Source: an uncultured Actinomycetes bacterium | GTDB lineage: Bacteria > Actinomycetota > Thermoleophilia > Gaiellales > JAICJC01 | Assembly (NCBI GenBank): GCA_963729195.1 | Contig: CAVSNF010000004.1 | Location: forward strand, 25,958 to 89,957 | Length of the DNA stretch: 64,000 nucleotides | Direction of reading: 5' to 3' | Shown here: piece after piece, positions 3,145 to 61,068 of the stretch | How the letters are laid out: each line of letters starts with the position of its first letter | Numbering within the stretch: position 1 is the first letter of the stretch | The notes under the pieces: generated by a model | The model's input: the letters and a program-made list of their open reading frames with translations, nothing else | What the model was told of the DNA's origin: nothing | Database searches by the model: none | Position numbers and translations under genes: made by a program

Positions 3145-3175
3145 GTGAATAACGGTGCCTGGCACCGTTATTCAC
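3145..3175. repeat. Palindromic element copy 1: GTGAATAACGGTGCC-T-GGCACCGTTATTCAC (perfect 15-1-15)
   Basis: Read directly. Begins the base after the permease TAG stop (3142-3144). Same sequence recurs at 8 other positions. Confidence 0.95.
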
Positions 3176-3214
3176 CTCGGAGTACGACAGGCGGCCTCAA
3201 TATGATCCGCGAGC

Positions 3215-4231
3215 ATGATCGACTGGCTCCAGCAGTTGTGGGACACGCTCACCGCGATCTCCCTGCCGATCCTGATTCTGGGGATCACGTTTCAGACTGC
3301 GCAGACGCTTCTGGTGGCGCTCGCGTGGCGAAACATCCTGCGCGCCGCCTACCCTGACAGCAACGTCACCTACCGCCCGATCATGGGCTACTACGCCGGC
3401 GGGAACGGGCTGAACGCGATCCTGCCGGCATCGGCAGGCACCGTGGCGATGCTGGGGCTGTTTCGCACGTCGATCAAGGGATCGACCGTGGCCGGAGTGC
3501 TGGGCGCCACCGTGGTCGAAAACATCTTCTTCGGGATCATGGGCTTCATCGTGTACCTGTGGCTCTTCCTGGGCGTGGCCGGATCGTTCGACGTCAAGCT
3601 GGGATGGTTCTCGGAGCACTGGGGGCTCACGATCATCATCATCGTGGCCGGTGGCTTGCTGTGCTTCATCGTCGGCAAGATCCTGTGGCACAGGTTCCAA
3701 AAGACCTGGGAGAACGCCAAAGAGGGCGGCGCGATCGTCGCCGACCGCAAGAAGTTCATGACCCAGGTGGTCGGTGTGGAGGCGCTCTCCTACATCGCTC
3801 GGATGGGCGTGAACGCGACCTTCATGTACGCCTACGACATCCCGGTGTCGGTGACCAACGTGTTCCTGATCGTGGCCGCCTCCTCGATCTCGTCAACAGT
3901 GGCCGTGGCGCCGGGGGCGGTGGGCGCCCAGACCGCGCTCGCCCAGGTGGTGCTGGCGCCGGTGGCATCGGCAAGCGCCATCACCACCTATACGGTCGGC
4001 CAGGCGCTGATCACCACCGCCTGGAACGCCGCCTTCGGCCTCACCATGCTGGCCCGCACGATCGGCTGGAAGGACACCAAGGCACTGATTCATGTCAAGA
4101 AGAAGAAGGAGGGCGGGGATGTCCACGCCGCAGCCGGCGATGCCGGTGCCGTGCCGGTGACCAATCCCCCGCCCGACGCCAACCAGCCCCGCTGGCATGG
4201 GTTCCGCCGCCACCGCCACAAGGACGAGTGA
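3215..4231 (+). CDS. Polytopic membrane protein, UPF0104 / lysylphosphatidylglycerol-synthase TM-region (flippase-like) family
   Basis: Intact 338-aa ORF with multiple hydrophobic helices and a lysine-rich C-terminal tail. Resembles the C-terminal domain of the convergent gene 4245..6675. Confidence 0.65.
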   Translation: MIDWLQQLWDTLTAISLPILILGITFQTAQTLLVALAWRNILRAAYPDSNVTYRPIMGYYAGGNGLNAILPASAGTVAMLGLFRTSIKGSTVAGVLGATVVENIFFGIMGFIVYLWLFLGVAGSFDVKLGWFSEHWGLTIIIIVAGGLLCFIVGKILWHRFQKTWENAKEGGAIVADRKKFMTQVVGVEALSYIARMGVNATFMYAYDIPVSVTNVFLIVAASSISSTVAVAPGAVGAQTALAQVVLAPVASASAITTYTVGQALITTAWNAAFGLTMLARTIGWKDTKALIHVKKKKEGGDVHAAAGDAGAVPVTNPPPDANQPRWHGFRRHRHKDE

Positions 4232-4244
4232 CGCGAGCCGACCG

Positions 4245-6675
4245 TTACAGGTAGTTGTGCTGGGTGAGCCAGCGCATGGCGAAGAATCCCCACAGCGGCG
4301 GCAGATAGAACGTGCACACGCGGTAGATCAGCGCCGTTGCCAGCGCCGCCTCCTCCGACATGCCCGCGCCGGTCAGCCCCACCGTGAGCCCAAACTCGGT
4401 CACGCCGATGCCGCCGGGCACCGGGATGAAGCTCGCAAACAGTGACACGCTGAGGTTGATCACCAGCAGGTCGGCGAGCGAGATGTCGGCTCCGAGTCCG
4501 CGCGCGATGCATCCCAGCGCGATCGCAAACAGCACCTCGGTGGCGAGGTTGCCGCCCATCAGCATCGCCAGCTTGTGCGAGCCGCGCAGCGACGAGAGGG
4601 TCGTTCGCACCTGCGGCCACCACTTGTGCACGCGGCTCGTGATCTGCCGCCGCAGTCGGGGCACCAGGGTGAATACGAGGATGTTGATGACCGCCAGCGC
4701 GACCAGGATGAACAGCAGCTTTTTGGCGCCTTCGGTGGGGATGTTGAAGTCGACCGACACGTCGGATTGCGAGAAGATCAGCAGCAGCACCAGCAGAATC
4801 GCCTGCAGCACGTTGCCGGCGAAGGAGTCGATCGCGCCGGAGGTGACGGCTGAGGCCGGCGGCACGCCCAGCCGCTGGAAGAAGCGGATGTTCACGGCCA
4901 TGCGGGCGAAGTTGGACGGCAACGCCAGGTTCATGTAGCTGGTCGCCAGCTGCATCGCGTACACCGGCCCGAACGGGAGCTCGGCGGCCACCGAGCCCAT
5001 GGTCGAAAGCGATTGGGTCAGGCGCGGGGTCTGGGCGATCACAAAGCCCAGCGCGATCCACGCCCAGGTGGCATCCTGCAGGCTCTCGCGCAGCTGATCC
5101 ACGTCGACCCCGCTGACCGCCCCGATCACGGTGGTGGTGGCAAGCACCAACAGCGCCAGCTGGATCATCGACCCCCACGTCACTCGCCGCAGCTTGGCCA
5201 GCTGCGGCGGCTCGGCCCCCGCCAACTCGGTCGCGTCCTGCCGCAGCTTGTTGAGATCGACCTCCGCAGTCTTCAGCTGACGGCGCAGCGTCGTCCCGAT
5301 GGCGGCGGCCTGGAGATAGGGCAGCAGAGTGGTGATGCCGTCGGCACCGAGCGACTGGTGGGCTGCCTGCAACGCCCGCTCGGGGGTGGTCAGAGCGGCT
5401 GTGGTCGCGAGCAGGCGGGCATGGTCGGTCGCGATCTGCTCCTCCGAAGGGCGCCACGCTGGCCGCCTCGAAGTCGATCAGCCCGACCACGCCGTCGCGC
5501 ACGACCACGGTGCGGGGGCCGATGCGAACGTGAGCGATGCTCGCCCGGCCGAGCATGCTCACCGTCTGCCAGCACTCGCGCAGCAGTCCGTCGTCCAGCT
5601 CCTCGGCAGACAGATCACCGATGGGGCGACCGTTGCCGCGCAGTACCAGCAGCGCATCGTCATAGCCCGACGACCCCGCCGTCACCACCTGGCGGGTGGG
5701 CACGCCGGCGTTCTCGGCCAGCAGCGTGACGAAGGCCTCGTGCTCCACCGCCTGGGAACGGCTCGCCCGCAACCCGGGGCCAGAATCGCGGTACCACAGG
5801 GTGCGCCACAACTTCTCGACCAACTGGTTGTCGTAGGCGTCGCGGCCGTACACCTTGACCACCAGCGGCATGCCGTCGGGATCACGCCCACGGGCCACGA
5901 ACGCTCCGGTGTCGCCGCGATCGACCCGCTCCAGGTCGCTCGCCGGGACGCCCAGCTGCTTGAGCCCGTCCGACACCTCGTCCAGCTCGGGGTAGCCGGC
6001 CGACGTGCCGAACGCGAGCCGGATCGCGGTGGCAGCGATGACCGCAATCAGCAGTGCCGCCACGGTGCCGCCGGGGTTGACGTTGTCGGCGAAGAACGCA
6101 GACAACGCCCCGAGCAAAAACAGCCAGCGGGTCAGCCGCTGCAGCGGGCGAGTCAGGTGAGGCGAGATCGCGAGCACCACCACCGCGCTTTGCACCACCC
6201 GCACCGCCGGCAGGTTCTTGCCGCTGAACTCGCCACCGATGACCGCGCTCAGCTCCGGCCAGCTGCCGGATGCGATCCGCGAGACGACGAACGCGAGCAC
6301 CACCGCCAGTGCCAGCGAGGCCAGCGCCTGGCCGAGCACGATCCGCCTGCGACGGGCCAGCGCGGTGATCACGAGGATCACCGCCCACAGCGTCAGCAGG
6401 TCGAAGAAGAACGCCCACACCGGATCGAGGAACGACGGTGCGCTACTGAGAAACGTGGCCAGCGGGGTGGACGCGTCGCCTACCGGGAACGCGATCACGA
6501 TCGCCGCCAGAGCGATCACCGACGGCGCCAGCAGCAGCACGTCGGATGCCCGGCGGGACCGTGGCTGTCCCGGCGACGAGGAGTACACGCGGATTCCGTG
6601 CCGGAATACTCCAGGGGTTACCAGAACACCGCGCGGTGCGCGTGCGGGGTCGGCAGAGCCGGCCTGGTCGGTCAT
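4245..6675 (-). CDS. Fusion membrane protein: N-terminal TM region + protein-kinase-like domain + C-terminal UPF0104 (flippase-like) domain; apparent frameshift near 5455
   Basis: ORF 4090..6675 N-terminal 400 aa (TM helices, then ...PLVVKVYGRDAYDNQLVEKLW...GLIDFEAAS) joins ORF 4245..5372 (UPF0104-like TM domain). The alternative frame at the junction reads ...SEEQIATDHARLLATT... without a stop. Confidence 0.65.
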
Positions 6676-6774
6676 GAGGTGGAGTATGCAGACCGGTCAA
6701 GACGGCGCCCCGAATGCCGAACGCCCCCGGACGCTGGTGCGGCCGGGGGCGTTCGACGGGGAAACGGCGGCGAT

Positions 6775-6945
6775 TTAAGAGAGGAAGCCGATGACCGTCT
6801 GGATGGTGTTTTGAATCGAGCCGGTGAGCAGAAGCAGAGTGGCCAGCACAGCGAGCGTGATGACCGTCATCAGCACTGCGTATTCCGCAGTCGTCTGACC
6901 TGACTCCCGACCCGACCCAGCAACGGTGTGCGTTACCTGCTGCAT
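6775..6945 (-). CDS. flp: Flp/Fap family type IVb pilin (56 aa; below the ORF-track length cutoff)
   Basis: Hand translation: MQQVTHTVAGSGRESGQTTAEYAVLMTVITLAVLATLLLLTGSIQNTIQTVIGFLS*. Contains the Flp prepilin G/xxxxEY motif followed by a hydrophobic helix. GGAG lies about 11 nt upstream of the ATG. Confidence 0.7.
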   Translation of the reverse strand: MQQVTHTVAGSGRESGQTTAEYAVLMTVITLAVLATLLLLTGSIQNTIQTVIGFLS

Positions 6946-7036
6946 GATGAAAGAACTCCTACCGGATTGGTGTACTTCGAACGTACGCCAAAATCGCAGC
7001 TCCGCAAGACCCGACGGGCGAAATGCTTGTCCCCGG

Positions 7037-7475: not shown

Positions 7476-7496
7476 GGCGTCCCCTTCGTCCAGATG

Positions 7497-7550
7497 GTAA
7501 AGTCACTTGACTGTACATGACCGAAGACACTTCGTCAAGTCATTTTACTG
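7497..7550. promoter_or_regulatory. Candidate MarR operator: imperfect inverted repeat GTAAAGTCACTTGAC ... GTCAAGTCATTTTAC
   Basis: 13/15 complementary arms at 7497-7511 and 7536-7550. They lie in the divergent cupin/MarR intergenic region and overlap the annotated MarR start. Confidence 0.3.
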
Positions 7551-7993: not shown

Positions 7994-8015
7994 CGGCATC
8001 GCATGGGACGGCAAG

Positions 8016-15629: not shown

Positions 15630-17052
15630 ATGGGCATCACTCCGCGAGTCGGCGAAGAGGTCACGCTCAAGCTCCCCGGCACCGACCACCGCGTCGTGAT
15701 CGTGGGATCGGGCTTCGGCGGGCTGTTCGCGGCGACGGTTCCTGCGCGGCGCGTCGATCGAGGTGACGCTGATCGATCGCACCAACCACCATCTGTTCCA
15801 GCCGCTCTTGTACCAGGTCGCCACCGGCATCCTGTCGGGCGGAGCGATCGCACCGGCGACCCGCGATGTCTTCCGAAACCACAAGAACATCGAGGTCGAG
15901 ATGGGTGATGTGACCGCCTTTGACCTGGACGCCAAGCGGGTCACGGCCACCCGCCCCGACGGGCGCGTGGTCGTGCACGAGTACGACAGCCTGATCGTGA
16001 GCGCCGGTGCCGGCGGCTCGTACTTCGGGCACGACGAGTTCGCCGAGTTCGCGCCCGGCATGAAGACGCTGGCCGACGCGCTCGATCAGCGCGCCCGCAT
16101 CTTTGGCGCGTTCGAGATGGCCGAGCTCGAGGAGGATCCCACGCGCCGCGCCGAGTGGCTGACATTCGTGGTGGTCGGCGGCGGCCCCACAGGAGTCGAG
16201 ATCGCCGGGCAGATCGCCGAGCTCTCACGCCGCGCCCTCAAGAACAACTTCCAAAACTTCAACCCCAAGACCGACGTCCGGGTGCTGCTGTTCGACGGCG
16301 GCAAGGAGGTGCTGTCCACCTTCGGCGACAAGCTGTCGGGGATCGGCCGCAAGGAGCTGGAGGCCACCGGCGTGGAGGTGCACACAGAGTCGATCGTGAC
16401 GCACGTGGACGGCGATCACGTCGAAGTCAAAGGCCCGAACGGCTCGGTCGATCGGTACGCCGCCAAGACCAAGATCTGGGCGGCCGGGGTGGCGGCGTCA
16501 CCGCTGGCCAAGGCGCTGGCCGACGCGGCCGGGGCCGAGTGCGACCGCAGCGGCCGGATCAAGGTGCAGCCGGACTGTTCGGTGCCCGGCTACCCCGAGG
16601 TGTTTGCAGTCGGCGACATGATGAACTTCGAGGACCTGCCCGGAGTGGCCGAGGTGGCGATGCAGTCGGGCATCCATGCCGCCCGCACGATCAAACGGCG
16701 AGTGGCAAACAACGCCGAGCCGCAGCCGTTTGTCTACCGCGACCTCGGCACCATGGCCGCCATCTCGCGCCGACGGGCGATCGTGAGCTTCCGGGGCAGG
16801 CACTTCTCCGGGTGGTTCGGCTGGCTGATGTGGATGTTCGTGCACCTGACCTTCATGACCGGTTTCCGCGGGCGGTTCGCGGCCGCCTGGTCGTGGTTCT
16901 TCAGCTTCGTCGGCCACCGACGCGGCCAGCGAGCGCTGACGATCACCAGGATCGGCGACGCCCCGGCCGACACGCCCGACTCAGCACCGCCCGACGACCC
17001 CGGCGACGACGAAGAATCCCCCACCGAGGCGCCAACAAAAGACCTTGAATAA
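15630..17052 (+). CDS. ndh: Type II NADH dehydrogenase (NDH-2); apparent frameshift near 15733
   Basis: HRVVIVGSGFGGLFAA (ORF 15630..15908) joins ...IEVTLIDRTNHHLFQPLLYQVATG... (ORF 15763..17052). Second dinucleotide fold VVVGGGPTGVEIAG. TAA stop 17050-17052 lies inside palindrome copy 2. Confidence 0.87.
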
Positions 17053-17074
17053 CGGTGCCTGGCACCGTTATTCA
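17046..17074. repeat. Palindromic element copy 2: TGAATAACGGTGCC-T-GGCACCGTTATTCA
   Basis: Read directly. Contains the TAA stop of ndh (+, 17050-17052) and the TAA stop of the convergent DUF1801 gene (-, 17068-17070). Confidence 0.95.
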
Positions 17075-26301: not shown

Positions 26302-26357
26302 TGATGTGACCGGTGACGTTGGTGGCGTCGCCGGCAAACGTTGCCGGTCACATCACT
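26300..26357. terminator. Bidirectional terminator-like hairpin between convergent genes (14-bp perfect stem AGTGATGTGACCGG / CCGGTCACATCACT, 30-nt loop)
   Basis: Read directly. The left arm overlaps the permease TAG (26299-26301). The right arm ends 2 nt before the carbonic anhydrase stop (26360-26362). No U-tract. Confidence 0.6.
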
Positions 26358-26359: not shown

Positions 26360-26851
26360 CTACTTGACCTCGCGCAGGTGCCCGGTCTCGACCTCGTACA
26401 CGAAGCCGCGCACCGAGTCCTTCTTGGGGATGAACGGGCTGGCCTGGATGCGGGCGATCGACTGCTTGACGTCAGCATCGAGGTCCGAGAACGTCTCGCA
26501 GTCCCAGTCCGGCGTGACGCCGGTGTCCGCCTGGAGCGTGGCCTTGAACTCGGAGTCGGTGAACGTCAGCATGCCGCAATCGGTGTGGTGGATCAGCACG
26601 ATCTCCTCGGTGCCGAGCAGTCGCTGGCTGATCGCAAGCGAACGGATCTCGTCGTCGGTGATCACGCCGCCGGCGTTTCGGATCACGTGTGCGTCGCCCT
26701 CCTGGAGCCCCAGGAGGCCGTACGGATTCAGGCGGGCGTCCATGCAGGCGACGACCGCAACCTTGCGGCCGGGAGGCATGGGCAGATCGCCCTTGTCGAA
26801 CGACGCCTCGTAGCTCTTGGCGTTCTGAAGCAGGTCATCGGTGACTGACAT
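26360..26851 (-). CDS. Beta-class carbonic anhydrase
   Basis: Intact 163-aa ORF: ...VAVVACMDARLNP..., ...VLIHHTDCGM... (Cys-Asp-Arg / His-x-x-Cys zinc ligand pattern). Confidence 0.9.
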   Translation of the reverse strand: MSVTDDLLQNAKSYEASFDKGDLPMPPGRKVAVVACMDARLNPYGLLGLQEGDAHVIRNAGGVITDDEIRSLAISQRLLGTEEIVLIHHTDCGMLTFTDSEFKATLQADTGVTPDWDCETFSDLDADVKQSIARIQASPFIPKKDSVRGFVYEVETGHLREVK

Positions 26852-29883: not shown

Positions 29884-30476
29884 GTGTACGCACCGTCAGT
29901 TGACAACCTGATCACCCAGCTCGCGCGGCTGCCCGGGATCGGCCAGCGGAGTGCCCAGAGGCTGGCGTTTCACCTGCTCAAAGCGACTCCCGAGGAGGCG
30001 GGCGCGCTGGCCGCAGCGATCACCGAGGTGAAGGAGCGGATCGGCTTCTGCGAGCGCTGCTACAACCTGGCCGAGGGGCCGCTGTGCACGATCTGCGCGG
30101 ACACCCGGCGCGACGTGTCCCTGATCTGCGTGGTCGAGGATCCCTCGGATGTGATCGCGCTGGAACGCACGCACGAGTACCGCGGCACCTATCACGTGCT
30201 GGGCGGGGCGCTGTCACCGATCGACGGCGTCGATCCCGACCACCTGCGCATCGCCGAGCTGATGGCTCGGATCGAGAGCTGGCCAGCGTGACCGAGGTGC
30301 TGCTGGCCACCAACCCCACCATGACCGGCGAGGCGACCGCCAACTACATCGCCGACCGGCTGCGCGACCGCACCACCGTCACCCGGCTGGCCAGCGGCCT
30401 GCCGGTCGGCGGCGACCTGGAGTACGCCGACGAGGTCACCCTCGGCCGAGCACTCCAAGGCCGCCGCGCGATCTGA
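29884..30476 (+). CDS. recR: Recombination protein RecR; apparent frameshift near 30277
   Basis: ...[20 protein letters not shown]..., C4 zinc finger [16 protein letters not shown], Toprim ...[17 protein letters not shown]... The C-terminus continues in ORF 30084..30476 (...[22 protein letters not shown]...). TGA stop lies inside palindrome copy 3. Confidence 0.9.
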
Positions 30477-30503
30477 ATAACGGTGCCAGGCACCGTTATT
30501 CAC
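30474..30503. repeat. Palindromic element copy 3: TGAATAACGGTGCC-A-GGCACCGTTATTCAC
   Basis: Read directly. Its first three bases are the recR TGA stop. Confidence 0.95.
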
Positions 30504-30516: not shown

Positions 30517-30549
30517 GTGAATAATCGGTGCCAGGCACCAATTATTCAC
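30517..30549. repeat. Palindromic element copy 4, variant form: GTGAATAATCGGTGCC-A-GGCACCAATTATTCAC (one C/A mismatch)
   Basis: Read directly, 13 nt after copy 3. Contains the TGA stop (30546-30548, minus strand) of gene 30546..31159. Confidence 0.92.
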
Positions 30550-35477: not shown

Positions 35478-35927
35478 ATGCAGCATCGACGCGGCACCCT
35501 GTGCCCCGTGTGCCTGGGGGAGGTACGACGGGGCGTATGTGATCACCACGGCCTGTGGTCTCCCCGCCAGCTCCTGACGATGCTCGACCGCCGCCACGCG
35601 ATCCGGCATACGTGGCATCCGTTCACCCCGATCCTCCACGCCTGTCCCCGCTGCCTGGGCGAGGTGGCTGAGAGCCGCTCCGGCGACTACGGCTGCATCG
35701 ACCACGACGGGCATGGGCCGTTCCAGCTGGACGAGCTGCTCGGCCCGAGCGCCCAGCGCGACGGCGCCATCGAGCGCGAACGGCTCGCGCGGGCACGCGA
35801 GCGCAAGCGAGACGCCGCCCCAACCGTGACTCTGCCCAAGCTCCACATCCCCAACCTCACGCACGTGACCCGCATCGCCGCCGCCGGTGCGGTGATCGTC
35901 ACGACCCTCTTCTTCCTCGCAAGGTGA
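35478..35927 (+). CDS. Hypothetical protein with duplicated CPxCLGEV zinc-ribbon-like motif and C-terminal TM helix
   Basis: MQHRRGTLCPVCLGEVRRGVCDHHG... and ...HACPRCLGEVAESRSGDYGCIDHDGHG...; the tail IAAAGAVIVTTLFFLAR is hydrophobic. TGA stop lies 3 nt before palindrome copy 5. Confidence 0.5.
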   Translation: MQHRRGTLCPVCLGEVRRGVCDHHGLWSPRQLLTMLDRRHAIRHTWHPFTPILHACPRCLGEVAESRSGDYGCIDHDGHGPFQLDELLGPSAQRDGAIERERLARARERKRDAAPTVTLPKLHIPNLTHVTRIAAAGAVIVTTLFFLAR

Positions 35928-35930: not shown

Positions 35931-35961
35931 GTGAATAACGGTGCCAGGCACCGTTATTCAC
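35931..35961. repeat. Palindromic element copy 5: GTGAATAACGGTGCC-A-GGCACCGTTATTCAC
   Basis: Read directly, between convergent gene ends (TGA 35925-35927 on +, TAG 35962-35964 on -). Confidence 0.95.
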
Positions 35962-36646
35962 CTAGGCAACCTTGGTGGCGGCGATCGGCTGGGTGGTGGG
36001 CTGCTGTGAGCCGCCGGCCGGCTCCACGGTGACAGCGACGGTGTCGCCGGGATGGGCTTTGGTTTCGAGGTCGACGCTGGTGCGACCGCCGGCGAACACT
36101 CCCGCTGAGATCGGTTTTCCGCCTGGAGGAATCACCCAGGCCTGATAGGTCTTGCCGCTGGGAGCCGCGGACGCGTTCGCGACCAGGGTGGCTTGGCCGT
36201 CGGCGTCGACGAACACTGTGCCGACGTGCGGAAGCGCGGCGCTGGTCTGGCTGCCATAGACGATGTCCTGGGTGTTGGTGAGCGAGTTGCGGAGAGAGAC
36301 GTTCCAGGCCACCAACCCGATCACGACAACCGCCAGCACCGGAGCGGCGATCCGCGCAAACCGCGGCCACCAGCCGGGTGAGCGGTCGGAACGACGCTCG
36401 GCTGGTGCCTCGGGCTGAGGCACCGGCGGCGGGCTCAATCGCGGCCATCAGTCGGTCGCGCAACTCGGGCGGCGGCGCCACCTCGGGGGTGGCCAGCGCC
36501 AGCAGCGCGGTGGTCGACTCGGCCTCGCGCAGGCGAGCCATGCAGGCAGAGCACTCGGACACGTGCGATTCGACCTGCGCAGCCTCCTCCGGCGTGAGTG
36601 CTCCCAGCACGTGGGCGGGAATCAGCTCGTCGACGTGGTCGTCCAC
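35962..36646 (-). CDS. rskA: Anti-sigma-K factor RskA-like (zf-HC2 N-terminus + RskA C-terminal domain); apparent frameshift near 36435
   Basis: N-terminus ...LGALTPEEAAQVESHVSECSACMARLRE... (ORF 35954..36646) joins ...PGWWPRFARIAAPVLAVVVIGLVAWNV...GKTYQAWVIPPGGKPISAGVF... (ORF 35962..36438). Confidence 0.8.
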
Positions 36647-41068: not shown

Positions 41069-43232
41069 GGATCACCACGCTTCGCCTGCACGGGTTCGGG
41101 CGGTTCCGCGAGCGGGAATTCGAGTTTGGGCCCGGCCTCACGATCGTGCACGGGCCGAACGAGGCCGGCAAGTCGACTCTGCACGCGGCGCTGTCTGCAT
41201 CCACCTTCGGGCTCGCTCCCAGCGGTCGCCGGCTGGCCAAGCACACCGCGGTGATCGAGCGTCACCGACCTTGGCAGAGCGACCGCTACGCCGCCACGGT
41301 CGAGCTCGAGCACAGCAGCGGGCGCCGCCTGCGGATCGATTGGGACTACGATCGGCAACAGTTTGCCGTGATCGATTCGGCGACCGGCGACGACCTCTCA
41401 TCCGCGCACGGTGCCGGCACCAACACCGACGTTCTGGCCGAGACGCTGCACGGCGTCGGGCGCGACGTGTACCTGCGGGTGGGGTCGATCGGTCAGGACG
41501 AGCTGGCCCAGATCGTGACCGGTGCGACCGACGTGCGCGAGGCGATCGAGCGCGCCGCCGGCCAGTCCCAGTCGGATTCGAGCAGCCAGACTGCGGTCGA
41601 CCGCCTGCGGGCGCGCCGCAAGCAGCTGGTCGGCCTCAACCGCAAACCAGAGCAACCCGCTGCCTCGCGCGGAGGCACAGGTCGCCGAGCTTCGAGCACA
41701 GCTCTCCGACGCCGTCGGCACCCGAGCCGAGGCCGAACAGCTGTCGGCCGAACGCGATCAGGCCGCCGAGCAGGCCGGCGCACTCGAGCGCCGCATCCGC
41801 GAGCTCGAGTTCGCGCTCGAAGGGGCGCGCTGGCGATCGCTGCAGGCCACCGTCAACCGAGCCGAGGGGCTCAATCGCGAGCTGCAGGCGGCCACCGCCG
41901 CAGTGCAAGGGTCGGTGGCGCTGGCGGAGTTCGCCCCGATCCCCGGGGTTGCCGGAGCGCGGGAACGATACGAGCATCTGATGGCGGAGCGCGACCGCAC
42001 CCGCCCGCGCCAGGCGGCGGTCGCAGGGAAGTTGGAGGAGCTGCGAATCCCCGCGGTCGAGTCCTGCCAACGCTCCCGGACCGTCTCGGGCCGGCTGGGC
42101 GGTTGCCGCCGTGGGGGCGGTGGCCGCGGCCGTAGGCCTGGTGCTCTCGACGCTGCTGGTGGTGTTGGGTGTGCTGGTGCTGGTGGCCGGAGTTGCGGCG
42201 GCGACCGTCACCCGCCGAGCCTACGATGCCCGCCGCGAAGCGGCCCGCGAGCAGCGCGACCGTGAGGCTGCCGATCGCCGCGATCGCGCAAAAGGTCTCG
42301 AGATCGAGTTGGCCAAGATCGCAACTGTTGACGCTGAGTACGAGGCCACCGCCGAGCGTCTGGCCGAGATGCTCGAGAGCGACGACACAAGCCCCCAGGG
42401 GATCTCCCAGGCGCTGGCCACCTACGACGAGCATGTGCGGGCCCACACGTCCAGGATCGATGCCGAGCGTCGCCGCAAGCAGGCCGAGGCCGAACTCGAC
42501 ACGCTGCTCAACGGTGGCAGCCTGGAACAGGTGCAGCAGCGCTGCGCCGAGCTGGAGCGGTCACTCAACGGGCACCGCAACGCGGCCGGTGCAGAACGCG
42601 ACCCCGACGACATCGAGGCGGAGCTTCACCGGCTGCGGTCGTCGGCCCGGCAGACTGCAGTCGACGCGAGCGGCCTGCGAGCCACCGCCGCCGAACGGCT
42701 GCGGCTGGTACCGGACACGGGGGCGCTGCAGGAGCAGCTGGATGCGGCCGAGGACGAGCTGACCCGCCTGCAGCGGCTGGAAGGCGTGCTGAAGCTGGCC
42801 GAGAACGAGCTGCAGGAGACGGTGGCGGAGACGTACCGCGACTTCGCCCCGCGGCTGAACGCTGCGCTCGAGCGAAACCTGGTGCGAGCCACGGGCGGCC
42901 GCTACAGCAGGGCGTTCGTGGCCGACGACCTGTCGGTGCGCCTGGAAGCCCCCGAGACCGGTGCGGTAATCGACCTGGCGCAGGTCTCAGCCGGCACCCA
43001 ACGGCTGGTGTACCTGATGCAGCGACTCGAGCTGGTGCAGCTGATCGCCCCCAGCAGCGAACCGCTGCCGGTGCTGCTGGACGAGCCGTTCGCCCATCTC
43101 GACCGAGAACGTATGCGCGCGGCACTGGAGGTGCTGACCGACCTGGCCGGCGACCGCCAGATCGTCGTCTTCACCACCCAGCGCGACGCCGCCGAACTCG
43201 CCCCCGACTCCACCACCCTGCTCGAGTTGTGA
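41065..43232 (+). CDS. SbcC/YhaN-like AAA ATPase with coiled-coil and central hydrophobic segment; two apparent frameshifts (about 41648, 42075)
   Basis: Walker A HGPNEAGKSTL. Long Ala/Glu/Arg coiled-coil. Hydrophobic AVAAVGAVAAAVGLVLSTLLVVLGVLVLVAGVAAA. C-terminal SAGTQRLVYL signature and PVLLDEPFAHLD Walker B. TGA stop lies inside palindrome copy 6. Confidence 0.75.
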
Positions 43233-43259
43233 ATAACGGTGCCAGGCACCGTTATTCAC
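43229..43259. repeat. Palindromic element copy 6: GTGAATAACGGTGCC-A-GGCACCGTTATTCAC
   Basis: Read directly. Bases 43230-43232 are the TGA stop of the SbcC-like gene. Confidence 0.95.
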
Positions 43260-43274
43260 CACCGACGATCGCGA

Positions 43275-43306
43275 GTGAATAATCGGTGCCTGGCACCAAT
43301 TATTCA
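43275..43306. repeat. Palindromic element copy 7, variant form: GTGAATAATCGGTGCC-T-GGCACCAATTATTCA
   Basis: Read directly, 15 nt after copy 6. Carries the same C/A arm mismatch as variant copy 4. Confidence 0.92.
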
Positions 43307-43329
43307 AGCGCCAAGTCAACCGTCAGCTG

Positions 43330-43429
43330 CAAGGATCGAGCGAGCGGGCGGAGCGGAGGCGTGGCAAAGCCACGTTGAGCACCGCACCGCCGCGTGGGAC
43401 GCCGCCAGAACCGGCGCGGACCAGCCTCA
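43330..43429. repeat. Second repeat family, copy A (78-nt conserved core 43330-43407 + variable 13 nt + conserved CCAGCCTCA containing the recQ stop)
   Basis: Manual alignment to 61122-61198 gives 3 substitutions and 1 single-base indel. Contains an imperfect long hairpin GGGCGGAGCGGAGGCGTGGC-AAA-GCCACGTTGAGCACCGCACCGCC. Confidence 0.85.
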
Positions 43430-45154
43430 GAGCTTGCGCACCAGCGGATACGGCCCCTCGGTCTTTCGCAGCGTCCCGGCCGCGATCATCCCGTCGATGG
43501 CCGCCATCACGTCGTCCTGGGTCATGTGTACCAGCGCGCCGTGGCTGTCCAGCCGGTCGTGGCCGGCGCCCTTGAGCGCCTTGGCGCCGGAGCCACGCAG
43601 GATCGCCGTGAGCCGGGAGCGGCCGACCGCGCCGTTGGTCTCGTCCACCGCCTGCAGCACCGCCGCTGAGACGTCCACCCCCGGGATCGCAGGCGCGACC
43701 GTCGACGCGTGCCCGTCACAGCAGACCTCGTCGGGCCGCGGCGACGGCTCGTCACCGAAGTACTCCAGCAGCACCTTGCGGCGGCAGCCCGCCGTGGTGG
43801 CATAGGCATCGATCGCCTTCAACCGGTCCCACCGCTGCCGCTCCACCCGGCGACCGGCGATCATCCCAGCCGCAACATGCTTGGGCGACAGCCGCGGCGC
43901 CGCCAGCCGCCCCGAGACATGTCCGGAGGGAGCCGGAAACAGCTCCAACGCGCCCGCCCGCTCCAGCACCGCCAGCGCCACCCGCGGCTCGTCACCGGGA
44001 AGCTCGCGATCGGCCGACGCGAACAGGCCCTCGGGCGAGGCCACGGTCGCCAGCGCTCGGTGCATCCCGTTGAGATCACCCGCTGAGAGCTTGGCGCGAT
44101 TGATGAAGTACACGATCAGACCCTTGTCGGCGGGGCTGTACAGGAGCGTGCAGCGAGCCGGGAGCCCGTCTCGTCCCGCGCGACCGGCCTGCTGGTAGTA
44201 CTCCTCCGGCGATGCCGGCAGCGTCCAATGCACCACCGAGCGCACATCGGCCTTGTCGATGCCCATGCCGAACGCGGTGGTGGCCGCAACCACTTCCAGA
44301 TCGCCGGCCAGGAACCCGCGCAGCGTCTGTGATCGCGCATCCTGGGTGAGGCCGGCGTGGTAGGGCTCGGCCCTCACCCCGGCGGCTCGGAGCCGGTCGG
44401 CGACCTCCACACAGGTCTTTCGGCGGCCGCAGTAGACCACCGCCGGCAGCCGGTCGGGGACGCGCAGAAGCGATGCCAGCACCTTGGTCTTGCCGGCATC
44501 ACCGGCCACCCGGATCACCTCGAAGAACAGGTTGGCGCGATCGAAGCCGGTGGTCGGCGTGGCCGGATCCCGCAGACCGAGTGCGGCCACGATGTCCTTG
44601 GCCACGCGCGGGGTGGCGGTGGCCGTCAGTGCAATCGTGGGCGGCGAGCCCAACCGCTCGCGCACGTCGGCCAGCCGGCGGTAGTCCGGCCGGAAGTCGT
44701 GACCCCACTCCGAAAGGCAATGGGCCTCGTCCACCGCCAGCCGCGAGACGTTGGTGGCCGCCAACGTGTCGAGAAATCTTCGACTCGAGAACCGCTCCGG
44801 GGCGACGTACACCAGTCGCGTACCACCCTCGCCGATCCGCTCCAGCGTGGCGGTGACGTCCTCGCGCGACATGCTCGAGGCGAGCATCTCGATGCCGTCG
44901 AACCCGCGCGCGACCAGCGCCGCGTGCTGATCCTGCATCAACGCGATCAGTGGCGAGACGACCACCGTCAGACCTGCTCCGACCACCGCCGGCAGCTGGT
45001 AACAGAGCGACTTGCCCGACCCGGTGGGCATGATCGCGAGCACGTCTCGACCCGCCAGCACGGCCTCCACCGCCTCGCGTTGGCCCGCTCGAAACTCCTC
45101 GAAGCCGAACCGGCTTCGCAGCTCCTGATCGATGTCGATGGTCGTTGCGCCCAC
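43427..45154 (-). CDS. recQ: ATP-dependent DNA helicase RecQ
   Basis: ...FRAGQREAVEAVLAGRDVLAIMPTGSGKSLCYQLPA..., DEAHCLSEWGHDFRPDY, ...TAFGMGIDKADVR..., YYQQAGRAGRDG, and a C-terminal HRDC-like region. GTG 45154 is the proposed start (ORF extends to 45277). Confidence 0.9.
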   Translation of the reverse strand: MGATTIDIDQELRSRFGFEEFRAGQREAVEAVLAGRDVLAIMPTGSGKSLCYQLPAVVGAGLTVVVSPLIALMQDQHAALVARGFDGIEMLASSMSREDVTATLERIGEGGTRLVYVAPERFSSRRFLDTLAATNVSRLAVDEAHCLSEWGHDFRPDYRRLADVRERLGSPPTIALTATATPRVAKDIVAALGLRDPATPTTGFDRANLFFEVIRVAGDAGKTKVLASLLRVPDRLPAVVYCGRRKTCVEVADRLRAAGVRAEPYHAGLTQDARSQTLRGFLAGDLEVVAATTAFGMGIDKADVRSVVHWTLPASPEEYYQQAGRAGRDGLPARCTLLYSPADKGLIVYFINRAKLSAGDLNGMHRALATVASPEGLFASADRELPGDEPRVALAVLERAGALELFPAPSGHVSGRLAAPRLSPKHVAAGMIAGRRVERQRWDRLKAIDAYATTAGCRRKVLLEYFGDEPSPRPDEVCCDGHASTVAPAIPGVDVSAAVLQAVDETNGAVGRSRLTAILRGSGAKALKGAGHDRLDSHGALVHMTQDDVMAAIDGMIAAGTLRKTEGPYPLVRKL

Positions 45155-52737: not shown

Positions 52738-52745
52738 CGGAGCGT

Positions 52746-55721: not shown

Positions 55722-56216
55722 ATGACGATCCGCGACCGCATCAATGGGCAACTGGTGGTTCTGGCCCCGCTCAACGTCGCGGACGCCCCCGCCTGGGCGC
55801 GCTGGCTGAACGATCCCGACACGACCCGCTACCTGTACGGCAGGCGGGGCGCCCCCGAGGAGCAGCCCACCGTCGACCAGATGCTCGAGTGGGGGCGGCG
55901 GATGCTGGCCGACCCGTGGCGGATGGCCGTGGGGCTGGAGGTACGAGGCGGCGGCACGGTGATCGGAAACGCACGCCTGACCCCGCACGGGCCGCGCCGG
56001 GCGCGGTTCTCGATCGTGATCGGCGAGGCCGAGCATCGCGGCCGCGGCATCGGCACCGAGGCCACCCGGATGATGGCCCAGCTCGGATTCGAGCGGCTCG
56101 ACCTGCGCGAGATCGTGCTGGACGTCGACCCCCGCAACGAAGCCGGCCGGCGCGCCTACCTGACCGCCGGCTTCACCCCCGGCCGCGGCGACTCCATGAC
56201 CCTCCGCCGTGAATAA
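55722..56216 (+). CDS. GNAT family N-acetyltransferase (RimJ/RimL-like)
   Basis: MTIRDRINGQLVVLAPLNVADAPAWARWLNDPDTTRYL...IGEAEHRGRGIGTEATRMMAQLGFERLDLREIVLDVDPRNEAGRRAYLTAGF... TAA stop lies inside palindrome copy 8. Confidence 0.8.
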   Translation: MTIRDRINGQLVVLAPLNVADAPAWARWLNDPDTTRYLYGRRGAPEEQPTVDQMLEWGRRMLADPWRMAVGLEVRGGGTVIGNARLTPHGPRRARFSIVIGEAEHRGRGIGTEATRMMAQLGFERLDLREIVLDVDPRNEAGRRAYLTAGFTPGRGDSMTLRRE

Positions 56217-56239
56217 CGGTGCCAGGCACCGTTATTCAC
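56209..56239. repeat. Palindromic element copy 8: GTGAATAACGGTGCC-A-GGCACCGTTATTCAC
   Basis: Read directly, between the GNAT stop (56214-56216, inside) and the reconstructed citrate synthase stop (56241-56243). Confidence 0.95.
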
Positions 56240-56240
56240 C

Positions 56241-57381: not shown

Positions 57382-57489
57382 GCGCGACCCTCCGCCGTGT
57401 CCTTGAGTGCTCTTGCGACTTCGACCCAATCCTAGCGTTCGTGCAAGAATCGCCCGGCCAGCCACCCTCAACCTTGTGGGAGTTTTCAC

Positions 57490-58587: not shown

Positions 58588-59513
58588 GGCGAGAGAAGAT
58601 CACCGTGGTCGGAGCCGGCAACGTCGGCGCCACCACCGCACAGCGACTGGCCGAGCGCGACTACGCCGACGTGGTGTTGGTGGACATCGTGGAGGGGCTG
58701 CCGCAGGGCAAGGCACTGGACATGAACGAGGCCGGCCCGGTGGTGGGCTACGAGCCCAACGTGGTCGGCTCCAACGGCTACGAGGAGACCGCCGGATCAG
58801 CGATCTGCGTGATCACCTCCGGCCGCGCGCGCACGCCGGGCATGAGCCGCGACGACCTGCTCAAGACCAATCAGGCGATCGTGTCGGACGTGACCAAGAA
58901 TCTGGTGGAGCGCTCACCGGACACCATCCTGATCGTCGTCACCAACCCGCTGGACGCGATGTGTCAGGTGGCGTTCCAGCAGGCCGGGTTTCCCCGCGAG
59001 CGGGTGATCGGCATGGCCGGCGTGCTCGACACCGCCCGGTTTCGCACCTTCCTGGCCTGGGAGCTGGGCGTGTCGGTCAAGGATGTCACCGGGTTCGTGC
59101 TCGGCGGGCATGGCGATCAGATGGTGCCGGTGACGTCCAACACCAATGTGGCCGGCATCCCCATCACCGACCTGATCGAGCCGGAGCGGCTTGCCGAGAT
59201 CGTGCAGCGCACCCGCGACGGCGGCGCCGAGGTGGTCAAGCTGCTGAAGTCCGGCTCGGCCTACTACGCGCCGTCGGCCTCGATCTGCGAGATGGTCGAC
59301 TCGATCGTGCTCGACCAGCAGCGGGTACTGCCCGCTGCGGCACTGCTGCAGGGCGAATACGGACTCAACGGGCTGTACATGGGTGTGCCCTGTCGGTTGG
59401 GTTCCCGCGGACTGGAGCACGTCTACGAGGTCGAGCTGACCACCGAGGAGCAGTCCGAGCTGAATCGCTCAGCGGACGCGGTTCGCGAGCTCATCGATGT
59501 GATGGGCCTCTGA
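58584..59513 (+). CDS. mdh: Malate dehydrogenase (LDH-like family)
   Basis: [20 protein letters not shown]..., ...[17 protein letters not shown]..., ...VVTNPLD..., ...GGHGDQMVP... Intact 309 aa. Confidence 0.92.
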
Positions 59514-59526
59514 GCACCACGGCCAC

Positions 59527-61041
59527 ATGAATCGATCGGCCCGACTGAAGCAGCTGGCGGGCCAATCGTTCGTGTACGGCCTCGGCGGGCTGGTCTCGCG
59601 GGCTGTCGGGATCGTGCTTCTGCCGGTGTATTTCCGGCACGTCTCGCGCGTCCAGTTCGGCGATGTCGAGCTGATCATGTCGACCATCACGCTGGCGGCG
59701 ATCGTCTTTCGGTTGGGTCTGACGAACGCGATGTTCCGCTTCTCGTTCGATAACCCGGGCGACGGAAACCGCGAGAAGACGGTGCAGACCACGTTCACCT
59801 CGGTGATGATCCTATCCACCCTGGCGGTGATCCTGGGCCTGATCTTCCTCGATCCCCTGGCTCACGTTCTGGGCGGCCGGGCGCTCACGATCATCGGCCT
59901 GACCGGCCTTTGGGTGACGATGAACTTCGACATCGTCACCGGCATCTACCGGATCGAGCGGCGGCCCACCGCGTTCGTCGTGTACTCGCTGACGAACGTC
60001 GCAATCACGGTGGTGATGACGGTGCTTCTGGTGGTGCATTGGCACCACGAGGCCGCCGGGCTGATGATCGGCAACTTCTCCGGCACCTACGTCACCTACT
60101 TCCTGATGCTGATCGCCCGCCGCGACGTGATTGGGTTTCGGCTGTTCAATCGTGAGCTGTTACGCCGGATGCTGCACTTCTCGGTGCCCCTGATCCCCGC
60201 CGGCCTGGCCCTGTGGGCGCTGAACGTCGCCGATCGCTTCCAGGTCAAGTACCTGGGCTCGCCGGCGCTTCTAGGCTCGTACTCGGCGGCCTCCAAGATC
60301 GCGCTTTCGATCATGCTGCTGATCGCGGCGTTCCAGACCGCCTGGCCGGCCTTCGCCAACTCGATGCCGTCGGAGGACGAGACCCGCAAGGTGTATGCGG
60401 TGGTGCTGACGTACTGGTCGATGGTGATGGCCTGGGCGGTGGTGGCGATCAGCCTGGCGACCCCGACGTATGTGCACGTGGCGCTGCCCAAGTCGGTGTG
60501 GGACGCAGCGCCGGTGGTGCCGCTGCTGATGTTCGGGTCGGTGCTGTTCGGCGCCTACCTGATTCTCAACGCCGGGGTCAACCGCTCCAAGAAGACTCGC
60601 TTCACGCCGGTGGTGGCGACCACCGCGGCGCTCGTCAACGTCGGCATCAACTTCGCGCTGATCCCGTGGATCGGTATCGTCGGCGCAGGCGTCTCGACCG
60701 TGATCGGGTATGTGGTGCTGGTCTACCTGGGCTGGCGCAACGCCCAGCACTCCTACCCGGTGGATTACGAATGGAGCCGGGTGATCCGTACGGCCCTGGT
60801 AGCCGCGGCGTTCGTCCTGCTGTCGATGCTGGTGATTCCCGCCACCGGCTGGGTGGGAGTGCCGCTGCGGATCATCCTCGCGGTGCTCTTCCCGGTCGGA
60901 TTGGTGGCGACCGGAGTGGTTCACCGGGGCGAGGTCGGCCGGGTGCGCGACAACCTCAAGGCGATGGGCAAGCGCCGCAGCAAGGCAGCCGTGCTCGAAG
61001 CCGAAGAAGAGGAAGCGATCGAGGAAGAGCCCGTCGCCTGA
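59527..61041 (+). CDS. Polysaccharide/oligosaccharide flippase (Wzx/MOP superfamily) membrane protein
   Basis: Intact 504-aa ORF with about 12-14 TM helices and an acidic C-terminal tail. TGA stop lies inside palindrome copy 9. Confidence 0.78.
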   Translation: MNRSARLKQLAGQSFVYGLGGLVSRAVGIVLLPVYFRHVSRVQFGDVELIMSTITLAAIVFRLGLTNAMFRFSFDNPGDGNREKTVQTTFTSVMILSTLAVILGLIFLDPLAHVLGGRALTIIGLTGLWVTMNFDIVTGIYRIERRPTAFVVYSLTNVAITVVMTVLLVVHWHHEAAGLMIGNFSGTYVTYFLMLIARRDVIGFRLFNRELLRRMLHFSVPLIPAGLALWALNVADRFQVKYLGSPALLGSYSAASKIALSIMLLIAAFQTAWPAFANSMPSEDETRKVYAVVLTYWSMVMAWAVVAISLATPTYVHVALPKSVWDAAPVVPLLMFGSVLFGAYLILNAGVNRSKKTRFTPVVATTAALVNVGINFALIPWIGIVGAGVSTVIGYVVLVYLGWRNAQHSYPVDYEWSRVIRTALVAAAFVLLSMLVIPATGWVGVPLRIILAVLFPVGLVATGVVHRGEVGRVRDNLKAMGKRRSKAAVLEAEEEEAIEEEPVA

Positions 61042-61068
61042 ATAACGGTGCCAGGCACCGTTATTCAC
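61039..61068. repeat. Palindromic element copy 9: TGAATAACGGTGCC-A-GGCACCGTTATTCAC
   Basis: Read directly. Its first three bases are the flippase TGA stop. Confidence 0.95.

Follow-up and report, generated by a model that had tools for sequence, protein, structure and literature searches.

The 64-kb stretch of DNA analysed here (the window) carries nine short palindromes at seven gene-end loci, six of them between convergent genes and one, at 3146, between tandem genes (Table 1). These are the nine copies noticed in the initial annotation, and the window holds exactly these nine, with everything else at noise level. With filters off, a covariance-model scan of the entire window scored the nine elements at 41–60 bits and the next-best match at 12.9 bits, and all nine GAATAA and all nine TTATTC hexamers of the window fall within them. 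Seven copies match the 29-nt sequence TGAATAACGGTGCCNGGCACCGTTATTCA exactly; allowing three mismatches produced no further copies in the window, and 100 shuffles gave 0 matches. The remaining two, at 30518–30548 and 43276–43306, are 31-nt variants of the form TGAATAATCGGTGCC-W-GGCACCAATTATTCA and are members of sister subtypes within a wider family. The original description of the copies as perfect palindromes is thus accurate for the seven identical copies but not for the two variants, each of which has a single C.A mismatch on the plus strand that becomes a U.G wobble on the minus strand. No isolated half-sites were found in the window by hexamer count, and all cores in the loci collected elsewhere have both arms. 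Decayed relics were likewise not found in the window, where covariance scores drop directly from 41 to 12.9 bits.

The window also contains two copies of a second repeat, of about 100 nt and with a rod-like hairpin fold. A unique, non-repeated hairpin at 26302–26357 likewise adjoins both stop codons.

Table 1. Palindromes and neighbouring repeats in the 64-kb window, with the genes that end at them.
Feature	Position	Strand	Basis and context
t1 palindrome (linker C/G), centre T	3146..3174	.	exact pattern match, covariance model; begins 1 nt after MacB/FtsX permease gene stop TAG 3142–3144; LPG synthase-like gene (+) downstream, start 3215
t1 palindrome, centre T	17046..17074	.	both convergent genes stop inside: Pyr_redox_2 gene TAA 17050–17052 (+), PGI gene TAA 17068–17070 (-)
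t1 palindrome, centre A	30474..30502	.	first three bases TGA = recR (+) stop
t2-like 31-nt variant, linker TC/AA	30518..30548	.	C.A on +, U.G on -; right arm gives TGA stop 30546–30548 of convergent minus-strand ORF; composite pair with t1 copy 45 nt upstream
t1 palindrome, centre A	35932..35960	.	between convergent gene ends: + gene stop TGA 35925–35927; anti-sigma (zf-HC2) gene (-) stop TAG 35962–35964
t1 palindrome, centre A	43230..43258	.	its TGA = stop of AAA/SbcC-like ATPase gene (+)
t2-like 31-nt variant (TC/AA), centre T	43276..43306	.	second half of t1-t2 composite, cores 47 nt apart
~100-nt rod-hairpin repeat, copy 1	43322..43432	-	starts at recQ TGA stop 43427–43429; followed by t2-like palindrome, then t1 palindrome
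t1 palindrome, centre A	56210..56238	.	both convergent genes stop inside: GNAT acetyltransferase gene TAA 56214–56216 (+), citrate synthase gene TGA 56236–56238 (-)
t1 palindrome, centre A	61039..61067	.	its TGA = stop of Polysacc_synt gene (+)
~100-nt rod-hairpin repeat, copy 2	61112..61222	-	starts at rsgA TGA stop 61217–61219; followed by small unique hairpin (about 61088–61108), then t1 palindrome

Anatomy and folding of the element

The unit consists of an AT-rich arm, (G)TGAATAA, a linker of 1–2 nt, the core GGTGCC-W-GGCACC, a complementary linker and the opposite arm, TTATTCA(C). Core and arms are invariant across the family, although part of this apparent conservation stems from collecting copies by exact match; of those that the pattern had not selected, 11 were exact and 5 had 1–2 mismatches. 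At its 5′ end the consensus reads (G)GTGAATAA, the leading G (position −1) being present in 137 of 197 copies. As originally reported, the first two canonical sites of the window have T as their central base and the other five have A. Because the sequence is a palindrome, this difference only marks orientation. In tandem contexts it is unrelated to the direction of transcription (A 3/T 8 at ++ sites, A 4/T 8 at -- sites), and the loop base is therefore not strand-specific. A restriction-modification or Dcm-type role for the CCWGG centre was considered and rejected; GGTGCC occurs 57 times and GGCACC 72 times elsewhere in the window, so that such sites are neither avoided nor special.

The linker varies symmetrically on both arms, as C/G, CC/GG, TT/AA, AT/AT or AA/TT, and the metagenome set adds CC/GG (69 of 92), CA/TG and AC/GT. 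Linker pairs were counted as CG 78, UA 28 and AU 6 with 4 unpaired, and as UA 20 and AU 19 with 1 unpaired. One copy has a private double change, GAAGAAC...GTTCTTC. The arm-core spacing shifts by 1 bp per side, placing the two arms 15 to 17 bp apart, and in a subset of copies (15/109) complementarity extends beyond the consensus by at least 5 nt. In the three imperfect t2-like copies that have a transition mismatch and a clear neighbour (window 30518, window 43276 and L056:312), the abutting gene's own strand carries the mismatch as a U.G wobble in every case.

The predicted hairpin has a folding energy of −22.2 to −24.4 kcal/mol (z = −4.7 to −6.3). With the A/U arms unpaired, a short stem core of 6 bp and a triloop remains. 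The t1 tail, UUAUUCAC, has 4 U in 8, below the threshold of 5 U in 8 used in a strict terminator scan, which did not call the element sites; the tail of the t4 subtype is UUUUAUUC. The terminator-like layout proposed at the outset is supported by the strong hairpin and by the enrichment at convergent gene ends described below; the U-rich tract is weak in the 29-nt type. A promoter scan flagged TTCACC-17-AATAAT at 43255–43283, spanning the t1-t2 composite there. With 2 such matches found and 0.9 expected, this is within chance, and promoter creation was rejected.

Gene ends and stop codons in related genomes

Besides the genome of the window, at least five related MAG species and 88 soil metagenome contigs contain the family. 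It is a clade-specific dispersed family whose hosts are uncultured, Thermoleophilia/Gaiellales-like soil actinobacteria. Its presence in independent ENA MAG assemblies and in JGI metagenomes rules out an assembly artefact. The copy density (9 in 64 kb; 123 in 578 kb of window plus loci) implies ∼100–140 per Mb, or hundreds of copies per genome in several species, and every copy sits at or between the ends of genes. The family pattern gave 0 matches in viral (phage) contigs and blastn with window positions 43200–43460 found no match in plasmid records; hence the element is not carried by phages, and for that region these collections contain no plasmid relative. No Rfam family covers the elements at gathering thresholds, and a permissive scan around 43200–43460 gave only chance matches to miRNA hairpins. 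Literature searches on the sequence string, on Gaiellales palindromes and on REP/RAYT in Actinobacteria returned nothing specific to the family.

The gene-end location noted in the window holds for the wider set, in which sites are enriched at convergent gene ends. Flanks were resolved at 100 sites, of which 63 lie between convergent, 31 between tandem and 6 between divergent genes, against a background of 19/66/15% (p of about 5e-29). That no copy lies in a promoter region is approximately correct, the exception being the palindrome at 3146, which is 40 nt upstream of the next start codon.

On either strand, two of the three reading frames meet TGA or TAA in the AT-rich arms, so that the element also terminates translation. 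The element itself provides the stop codon (TGA or TAA) of the facing gene at 133 of 216 gene ends (61%). Stops starting at element position 1 (TGA) or 5 (TAA) are seen at 56/105 gene ends of the MAG and window set and at 77/111 of the metagenome set. The frame without a stop in the arm is depleted in both, at 21/105 (p = 0.004) and 9/111 (p = 8e-8), respectively. At 200 of the 216 facing ends the stop falls in the arm or no more than 25 nt away, and reading through the element is seen at just 2 of 105 gene ends. The role of the arms as stop codons of flanking genes was absent from the initial annotation.

Subtype turnover and the question of mobility

Comparison of orthologous regions, suggested earlier as a way of detecting mobility, revealed both subtype swaps and presence or absence of t2 copies between relatives. 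At one orthologous site with 94% flank identity, L108 has t2 and L045 has t1, with identical junctions. Further swaps, again with identical junctions, are seen between L071 (t4) and L014 (t2+t1), L107 (t2) and L029 (t4), and L035 (t4) and L053 (t1). A t2 copy present in L044 and L056 is absent in L065 and the window, and the central base flips between orthologues. In more distant relatives, the end of the same citrate synthase gene has palindromes of other families. Composites of t1 and t2 with cores 44–48 nt apart occur at about 16 sites (17 including one at 39 nt), two of them in the window. In these the spacer has diverged while both palindromes are intact, which indicates maintenance, by selection or palindrome-limited conversion, and not merely recent insertion.

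A REP/MITE-like element or a site for a dedicated factor had been proposed. A dispersed hairpin repeat is what was found, but the MITE option is unsupported because there is no target-site duplication: flanking direct repeats of 2–6 nt occur at the chance rate (for k = 4, 2 observed and 1.8 expected; 197 copies). By-eye inspection of the presence/absence pairs L044/L065 and L056/window for clean empty sites showed short direct repeats that are ambiguous and are not claimed as duplications. A phmmer search with E. coli RayT against six-frame ORFs of 0.62 Mb (about 2–3% of the genomes) gave a best E-value of 0.19. Integron attC-like cassettes were also considered. The 0.4–1.4 kb segments next to the relatives' palindromes carry unrelated ordinary genes and provide no cassette evidence. 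These inserts include a gene for a small membrane protein and, by by-eye assignment only, ORFs resembling a GST-like protein and an amidase.

Interpretation and comparison with known systems

Taken together, the anatomy, distribution, gene context, stop-codon use, symmetric covariation and turnover documented above make it probable, in our judgement, that the element is a REP/TRIT-like hairpin repeat: a bidirectional terminator or 3′-end hairpin with a built-in stop codon, kept uniform by copy-replacement. Transcripts of either strand would fold into a hairpin of 13–15 bp with a U-rich run, UUAUUCA or, in one subtype, UUUUAUUCA, after the GC core. For genes running into it, the element might serve as a bidirectional intrinsic terminator, a protective 3′-end hairpin, or both; it is probably a two-way transcription stop. 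Translation would end there too, most neighbouring genes taking their stop codon from the element. The copies would not be old conserved terminators; they appear to be kept uniform by copy-and-replace, whether through gene conversion, through switching of template from one copy to another or through an enzyme specific for hairpins, for example a Y1/RAYT-type transposase, a process that would leave no target-site duplication. Termination or RNA stabilisation by the element, and an agent that spreads the copies, are thus what we infer. Several points bear against the terminator part. The U-tract of the commonest subtype is weak, and the near-perfect sequence identity exceeds what an RNA hairpin needs. 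A ribosome that terminates at a stop within the 5′ arm would open up the hairpin, which under close coupling of translation and transcription could hinder rather than help termination. In M. tuberculosis, the TRIT motif overlapped only 2–4% of mapped 3′ ends.

A bolder and more doubtful version of this reading is a clade-wide, actively maintained 'gene-end module', in which a trans-acting factor recognises the invariant hairpin and TGAATAA arms and keeps rewriting gene ends. Such a factor might be a Y1-type enzyme specific for hairpins that has been domesticated, or a termination factor that binds RNA or DNA hairpins. If so, a large share of genes would owe both their translational and their transcriptional stop to a single repeat, and the lineage 'dialects' of the linker would co-evolve with the factor.

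The turnover data would also fit a purely selfish hairpin repeat of the REP kind, spread by a Y1/RAYT-type enzyme or by conversion and with no host function, which we regard as unlikely. Its gene-end location would arise because insertion elsewhere is harmful, the arm stops making insertions at 3′ coding ends tolerable; the depleted read-through frame is as expected from such filtering. Subtype swaps, t2 presence/absence at orthologous sites, related species each with their own family at the same gene end and the lack of isolated half-sites are in agreement with it. However, the window lacks decayed copies, the composites point to maintenance, the U-rich tail and convergent-gene bias fit a terminator, and no transposase was found in the 0.62 Mb sampled. 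The unique hairpin at 26302–26357 moreover suggests that the host favours hairpins where both stop codons adjoin. The invariance of the 13-bp core and 7-bp arms across species, beyond the needs of base pairing, would be explained if the element were a site in duplex DNA for a sequence-specific dimer, for example a protein that organises the nucleoid, one that blocks or terminates transcription, or a recombinase, with the hairpin potential a by-product of two-fold symmetry. A motif-binding factor was likewise proposed by the TRIT authors in the available text (PMC3152330). We nevertheless consider such a site improbable: the linker changes on both arms together, also in length, and independent half-sites would not covary in this way; a rigid dimer would be sensitive to arm spacing that varies from 15 to 17 bp; and the complementary flanks beyond the consensus, the wobbles on the transcribed strand and the placement tied to the reading frame of neighbouring ORFs all argue against it. 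Least credible, and very improbable, is an uptake signal accumulated by biased transformation in the manner of Neisseria DUS pairs. The lineage-specific subtypes resemble DUS 'dialects', but the window has no lone half-site, every core in the collected loci has both arms, and to our knowledge natural competence is not known for this clade.

Many C-termini in these MAGs are set by a repeat, which calls for caution in annotation. The element can serve as a marker of gene and operon ends in these genomes and is a candidate compact bidirectional terminator for actinobacterial synthetic biology. Its symmetric linker subtypes and in-place swaps offer a clean system for studying the homogenisation of palindromic repeats.

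Among known systems, inverted pairs of Neisseria DUS form terminators at gene ends and have species 'dialects', and DUS pairs and Correia elements are, like the present family, short repeats, and they coincide with terminators. Uptake signals are, however, mostly single copies, many of them inside genes, whereas no isolated half-sites occur in the window; and Correia elements are far larger, with terminal inverted repeats and a TA duplication that are lacking here. Rickettsia palindromic elements (RPE) are also short repeats, tolerated within reading frames, but are read through, whereas the present element ends them. From MITEs the family differs in lacking target-site duplications. It shares with canonical bidirectional intrinsic terminators an A-rich tract, a GC stem-loop, a U-rich tract and a convergent-gene location, but those are unique sequences, whereas this one is repeated, with a short stem core and a 4-U tract in its main subtype.

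REP/BIME elements, which are associated with RAYT transposases in Enterobacteria and Pseudomonas, are extragenic palindromes of 20–40 nt present in hundreds of copies. The present repeats are likewise short (29–31 nt), palindromic, extragenic and of high copy number, with a preference for 3′ ends and convergent pairs, species-specific families and no target-site duplications, and they occur singly or, like BIMEs, paired at fixed spacing (here t1-t2). REPs are, however, imperfect palindromes with a conserved 5′ GT(A/G)G, whereas no GTAG or GTGG adjoins the stem here, most copies are perfect palindromes and the 0.62 Mb sampled yielded no RAYT gene. We know of no routine supply of stop codons by REPs. 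E. coli REPs act as terminators and mRNA stabilisers (bioRxiv 10.64898/2026.03.23.713779).

The closest analogue is found in Mycobacterium. Canonical intrinsic terminators are considered scarce in high-GC actinobacteria, and TRIT is the one known sequence-conserved terminator-like motif there, although its role is still disputed. The palindrome family itself appears undescribed, as first noted, though its kind is known; to call the kind undescribed would be too strong, since the mycobacterial TRIT motif (PMC3152330) precedes it. In the portion of that report available, TRIT is a sequence-conserved palindromic hairpin with about 147 copies per genome, mostly bidirectional, lying across stop codons at a narrow position around −8 that overlaps the coding end, and a trans-acting factor was suspected because of the sequence conservation (Gardner et al. 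2011, PMC3152330). Rfam contains no TRIT alignment, and the two were compared by their descriptions. Both are conserved palindromes at gene termini that straddle the stop codon, but TRIT, in the same text, is reported from Mycobacterium only, and arm stops (TGA/TAA) in two frames, frame bias and symmetric linkers, all present here, are not described for it there (PMC3152330). The finding of a second, apparently independent family that also straddles stop codons, in an uncultured and distantly related class of actinobacteria, suggests that repeats of the 'stop codon plus hairpin' kind recur in compact GC-rich genomes, be it as a solution or as a parasite.

Anatomy, distribution and linker covariation

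The dispersed, near-identical palindromes reported in the initial annotation are real. A pattern search of the window returned seven exact matches, to which two variants are added; a tolerance of three mismatches gave no further copies in the window, and 100 dinucleotide shuffles of the window gave 0 matches. A covariance model derived from 117 members of the family, run over the window with filters off, scored nine elements at 41–60 bits, the next best match reaching 12.9 bits. All GAATAA and TTATTC hexamers in the window (G+C 66–71%) lie inside these nine elements. These scores and the hexamer placement confirm the observation and leave the window without half-sites or decayed relics. The reported T/A difference at the central base also exists, but it reflects only the orientation of the palindrome: A occurs in 35, T in 45 and G or C in none of 80 copies collected with the centre free, and the metagenome set has A 43, T 47, C 1 and G 1. 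No relation between the central base and transcription direction was seen in tandem contexts.

Coordinates of the palindromes and associated features in the window and in loci (L-numbers) from related MAGs
Feature	Sequence	Position	Remark
Exact palindromes (starts)	Window	3146, 17046, 30474, 35932, 43230, 56210, 61039	TGAATAACGGTGCC-N-GGCACCGTTATTCA
Variant palindromes	Window	30518-30548, 43276-43306	TGAATAATCGGTGCC-W-GGCACCAATTATTCA
recR	Window	29884-30476	Two overlapping ORFs, 29884-30291 (N-terminal RecR domain) and 30288-30476 (C-terminal domain)
Anti-sigma gene	Window	35954-36646	Apparent frame change close to 3' end
Unique hairpin	Window	26302-26357	19-21-bp arms, TGATGTGACCGGTGACGTT ... 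AACGTTGCCGGTCACATCA; opposing stop CTA at 26360-26362
Sigma-70-type pattern	Window	43255-43283 (+), 43326-43299 (-)	AATAAT (t2-like arm) and TTCACC (t1 arm), 17 nt apart
~100-nt repeat	Window	43322-43432 (-), 61112-61222 (-)	
~100-nt repeat	MAG loci	L040:1410-1525, L045:5255-5368, L054:2120-2232, L034:833-945, L058:4970-5082, L047:5232-5345	
Lineage-specific segments, 0.4-0.75 kb	MAG loci	L007:5727-6140, L021:3917-4680, L064:6712-7440, L038:1163-1760	
Duplicated gene 3' end	L060	2545-2729	~40 nt (…GCGCGGTCAGCGCCTACGCCGCGATG) present twice
Inverted pairs of TGAATAAGAGGGGTCAGTCGCCTTTTATTCA	L066	11138-11233, 14783-14879	Starts about 65 nt apart
27-nt palindromes	L067	11141-11167, 7851-7877	CGTGGGGGAACC-ATG-GGTTCCCCCACG, directly at TAA stops
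Degenerate relic, CC/GG type	L067	3021-3051	TGGATAACCGGTGTCAGGCACCGGCTATTCA

When one genome per species was scanned with a 22-base core, at least 65 loci were found, and all of those among the matches listed are in five 'uncultured Actinomycetes' MAGs; several are orthologous to the window at 92–95% identity. These MAGs come from Danish soil samples (CAVRSB, CAVPTL, CAWESH, CAVSFZ and CAVQXH). A subtype-agnostic scan of JGI metagenomes gave 88 contigs with the family (mean G+C 71%); those with BLAST matches of 300 bases or longer shared 67–94% identity with the MAG loci. All subtypes have GGTGCC-W-GGCACC as their core and (G)TGAATAA / TTATTCA(C) as their arms, and they differ by a linker of 1–2 nt that is altered jointly on both arms. 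The MAG loci and window comprise 79 copies with C/G (t1), 18 with TT/AA, 10 with AT/AT and 6 with AA/TT (t4), together with a few imperfect intermediates. The two variants singled out previously are genuine copies, and their TC/AA linker (t2-like) places them among these intermediates. A fifth subtype, CC/GG, predominates in the metagenome set (69 of 92 copies), where CA/TG and AC/GT linkers are rare.

The first linker pair is CG in 78 cases, UA in 28, AU in 6 and unpaired in 4, and the second is UA in 20, AU in 19 and unpaired in 1. One copy carries a private double change (GAAGAAC...GTTCTTC), and 15 of 109 copies have complementarity that reaches at least 5 bases past the consensus, into flanks that otherwise vary. 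Such symmetric change would be expected of a nucleic-acid hairpin, through selection on pairing or hairpin-templated correction, and would not be expected of two half-sites read independently by a DNA-binding dimer, especially as the arm-to-core spacing varies too.

Stop-codon use and hairpin features

The genes adjoining the elements are ordinary core genes, encoding a MacB/FtsX permease and an LPG-synthase-like protein, a pyridine-nucleotide oxidoreductase and PGI, RecR and an anti-sigma zf-HC2 protein, an AAA/SbcC-like ATPase and RecQ, a GNAT acetyltransferase and citrate synthase, and a Polysacc_synt protein and RsgA. The window also has genes for a large SRP RNA and two tRNAs. The split of recR is a frameshift, probably due to an assembly indel. 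Among named relatives, the citrate synthase is closest to those of Gaiellales/Thermoleophilia MAGs (∼80–82% amino-acid identity), and hence the host is not a Mycobacterium.

With flank coding potential assessed by a codon model trained on the same sequences, 63 of 100 element sites were at convergent junctions (background 19%), 31 at tandem junctions (66%) and 6 at divergent junctions (15%), a distribution that differs from background with p ∼5e-29. Of the window loci, 3146 is tandem and the other six are convergent. Read on either strand, the TGAATAA arm has TGA in one frame and TAA in another, and the arms are the stop codons of the flanking genes, which is the most striking feature of the family and was overlooked in the initial annotation. 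For the MAG loci and the window together, the facing gene's stop begins at element position 1 or 5 at 56 of 105 gene ends; the independent metagenome set gives 77 of 111, and 200 of 216 stops are within the arm or at most 25 nt from it. The third frame, in which the arm is read through, is underrepresented in both the MAG and window set (21/105, p = 0.004) and the metagenome set (9/111, p = 8e-8). The elements at 17046 and 56210 each hold the stops of both convergent genes within one 29-nt unit. Gene–element junctions are plastic among orthologues: the end of recR in the window reads gatcTGA-ATAAC, that in L007 gatcTGAgtcgTGAATAAC and that in L021 gatcTAGgTGAATAAC, and in L008 a 2-nt indel makes the gene upstream of 35932 terminate at the TGA of the element itself.

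Either strand of the palindrome folds as RNA into a 14-bp stem with a C-W-G triloop (−22 to −24 kcal/mol, z = −4.7 to −6.3). The GC core alone (CGGUGC/GCACCG) gives −8.6 kcal/mol and is followed by UUAUUCAC, a tail in which just 4 of 8 bases are U. The window palindromes were not called by a strict terminator scan; the AA/TT subtype has a better tail, UUUUAUUC. Imperfect t2-like copies with a clear neighbour gene (window 30518, window 43276 and L056:312) have a mismatch that reads C.A on one strand and U.G on its complement, and the U.G is on the strand of the abutting gene in 3/3, which weakly suggests constraint at the RNA level. We propose that the element most likely combines a stop codon with a bidirectional terminator or a 3' hairpin, with a putative role in termination or RNA stabilisation.

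A unique, non-repeated hairpin also adjoins both stop codons of a convergent gene pair in the window. It begins directly after a TAG stop, ends 2 nt short of the opposing stop, has TGA in all three frames of its arm and is without a U-tract; having hairpins right at stop codons thus seems to be widespread practice in this compact genome. Neighbouring t1 and t2-like arms match a sigma-70-type promoter pattern, and the count of such matches in that region is within chance.

Turnover at orthologous sites

Comparison of orthologous regions, proposed previously as a check for mobility, covered three window sites, each of which holds an element in every relative, with differences in content. A t2 copy of L044 is missing from L065. 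At the 17046 site L056 has an additional t2 copy and the opposite central base, and in L007 and L021 a segment of 0.45–0.75 kb with a small membrane-protein gene lies between t1 and t2 copies that are 14 nt apart in the window. Subtypes are swapped with identical outer junctions between L108 (t2) and L045 (t1; 94% flank identity), L071 (t4) and L014 (t2+t1 composite; 90%), L107 (t2) and L029 (t4), and L035 (t4) and L053 (t1). Since a swap requires matched changes on both arms, these look like replacement from another copy or hairpin-templated correction, not independent point mutation. Composites of t1 and t2 are present at about 16 sites, with cores 44–48 nt apart, a loosely conserved spacer and both palindromes intact. 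Taken together, the turnover results point to ongoing homogenisation or selection on the exact sequence, and speak against an ancient static terminator as well as against one recent burst. Most likely the family is kept uniform by copy-replacement, with a putative spreading agent.

The lineage-specific segments, some of which encode small membrane proteins, lie directly beside or between palindromes that other genomes have side by side, and the hot spots at which small genes are gained and lost coincide with palindrome sites. One of the duplicate segments in L060 precedes a t3 palindrome and the other a t1 palindrome 143 nt downstream, which looks like a footprint of recombination or template switching between palindromes.

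A second, GC-rich repeat family of ∼100 nt, without an Rfam match, folds as a single long rod hairpin of 31 pairs, 7 with compensatory changes, and has two invariant G.U pairs (gene-sense strand). It starts with (C)TGAGGCTGG in 5/8 copies, the TGA being the stop of the preceding gene (in the window, recQ and rsgA), and a small variable hairpin and then a t1, t2 or t3 palindrome always follow downstream. More distant relatives have different palindrome families at the orthologous citrate synthase end. L066 (citrate synthase 88% identical in amino acids) has one of its inverted pairs at the orthologous citrate synthase/acetyltransferase junction; the AT-rich arms are those of the window family, and the core is different and asymmetric. 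L067 (81% identity; a 4.28-Mb contig) has one copy of an unrelated palindrome family at this gene end.

Comparison with known repeat systems

The MITE-like option raised in the initial annotation is not sustained, as target-site duplication, which defines such elements, is absent at the element flanks. A DNA-uptake sequence was also considered and rejected on its defining feature, there being no half-sites in the window. The palindromes are a real, undescribed REP/TRIT-like repeat family of an uncultured Thermoleophilia-like clade. They resemble REP/BIME elements in their size and copy number, in their bias towards 3' ends and convergent genes, in being arranged in pairs and in lacking duplications, although the REP hallmark 5' GT(A/G)G is missing; no gene for RAYT, the Y1 transposase of REPs, was seen in the 0.62 Mb sampled. 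In E. coli, REPs serve as terminator and mRNA stabiliser (bioRxiv 10.64898/2026.03.23.713779). The closest described analogue is TRIT, a palindromic, terminator-like motif whose host is Mycobacterium, whereas the host here is of a different class. TRIT has 147 mostly bidirectional copies, placed within very narrow limits across the stop codon at about −8, and its authors suspected a binding factor (PMC3152330); in later Term-seq TRIT overlaps few mapped 3' ends (bioRxiv 10.1101/2022.06.01.494293). With TRIT and REP as precedents, the interest of the present family lies in its frame-dependent use of stop codons and its symmetric linker 'dialects'.
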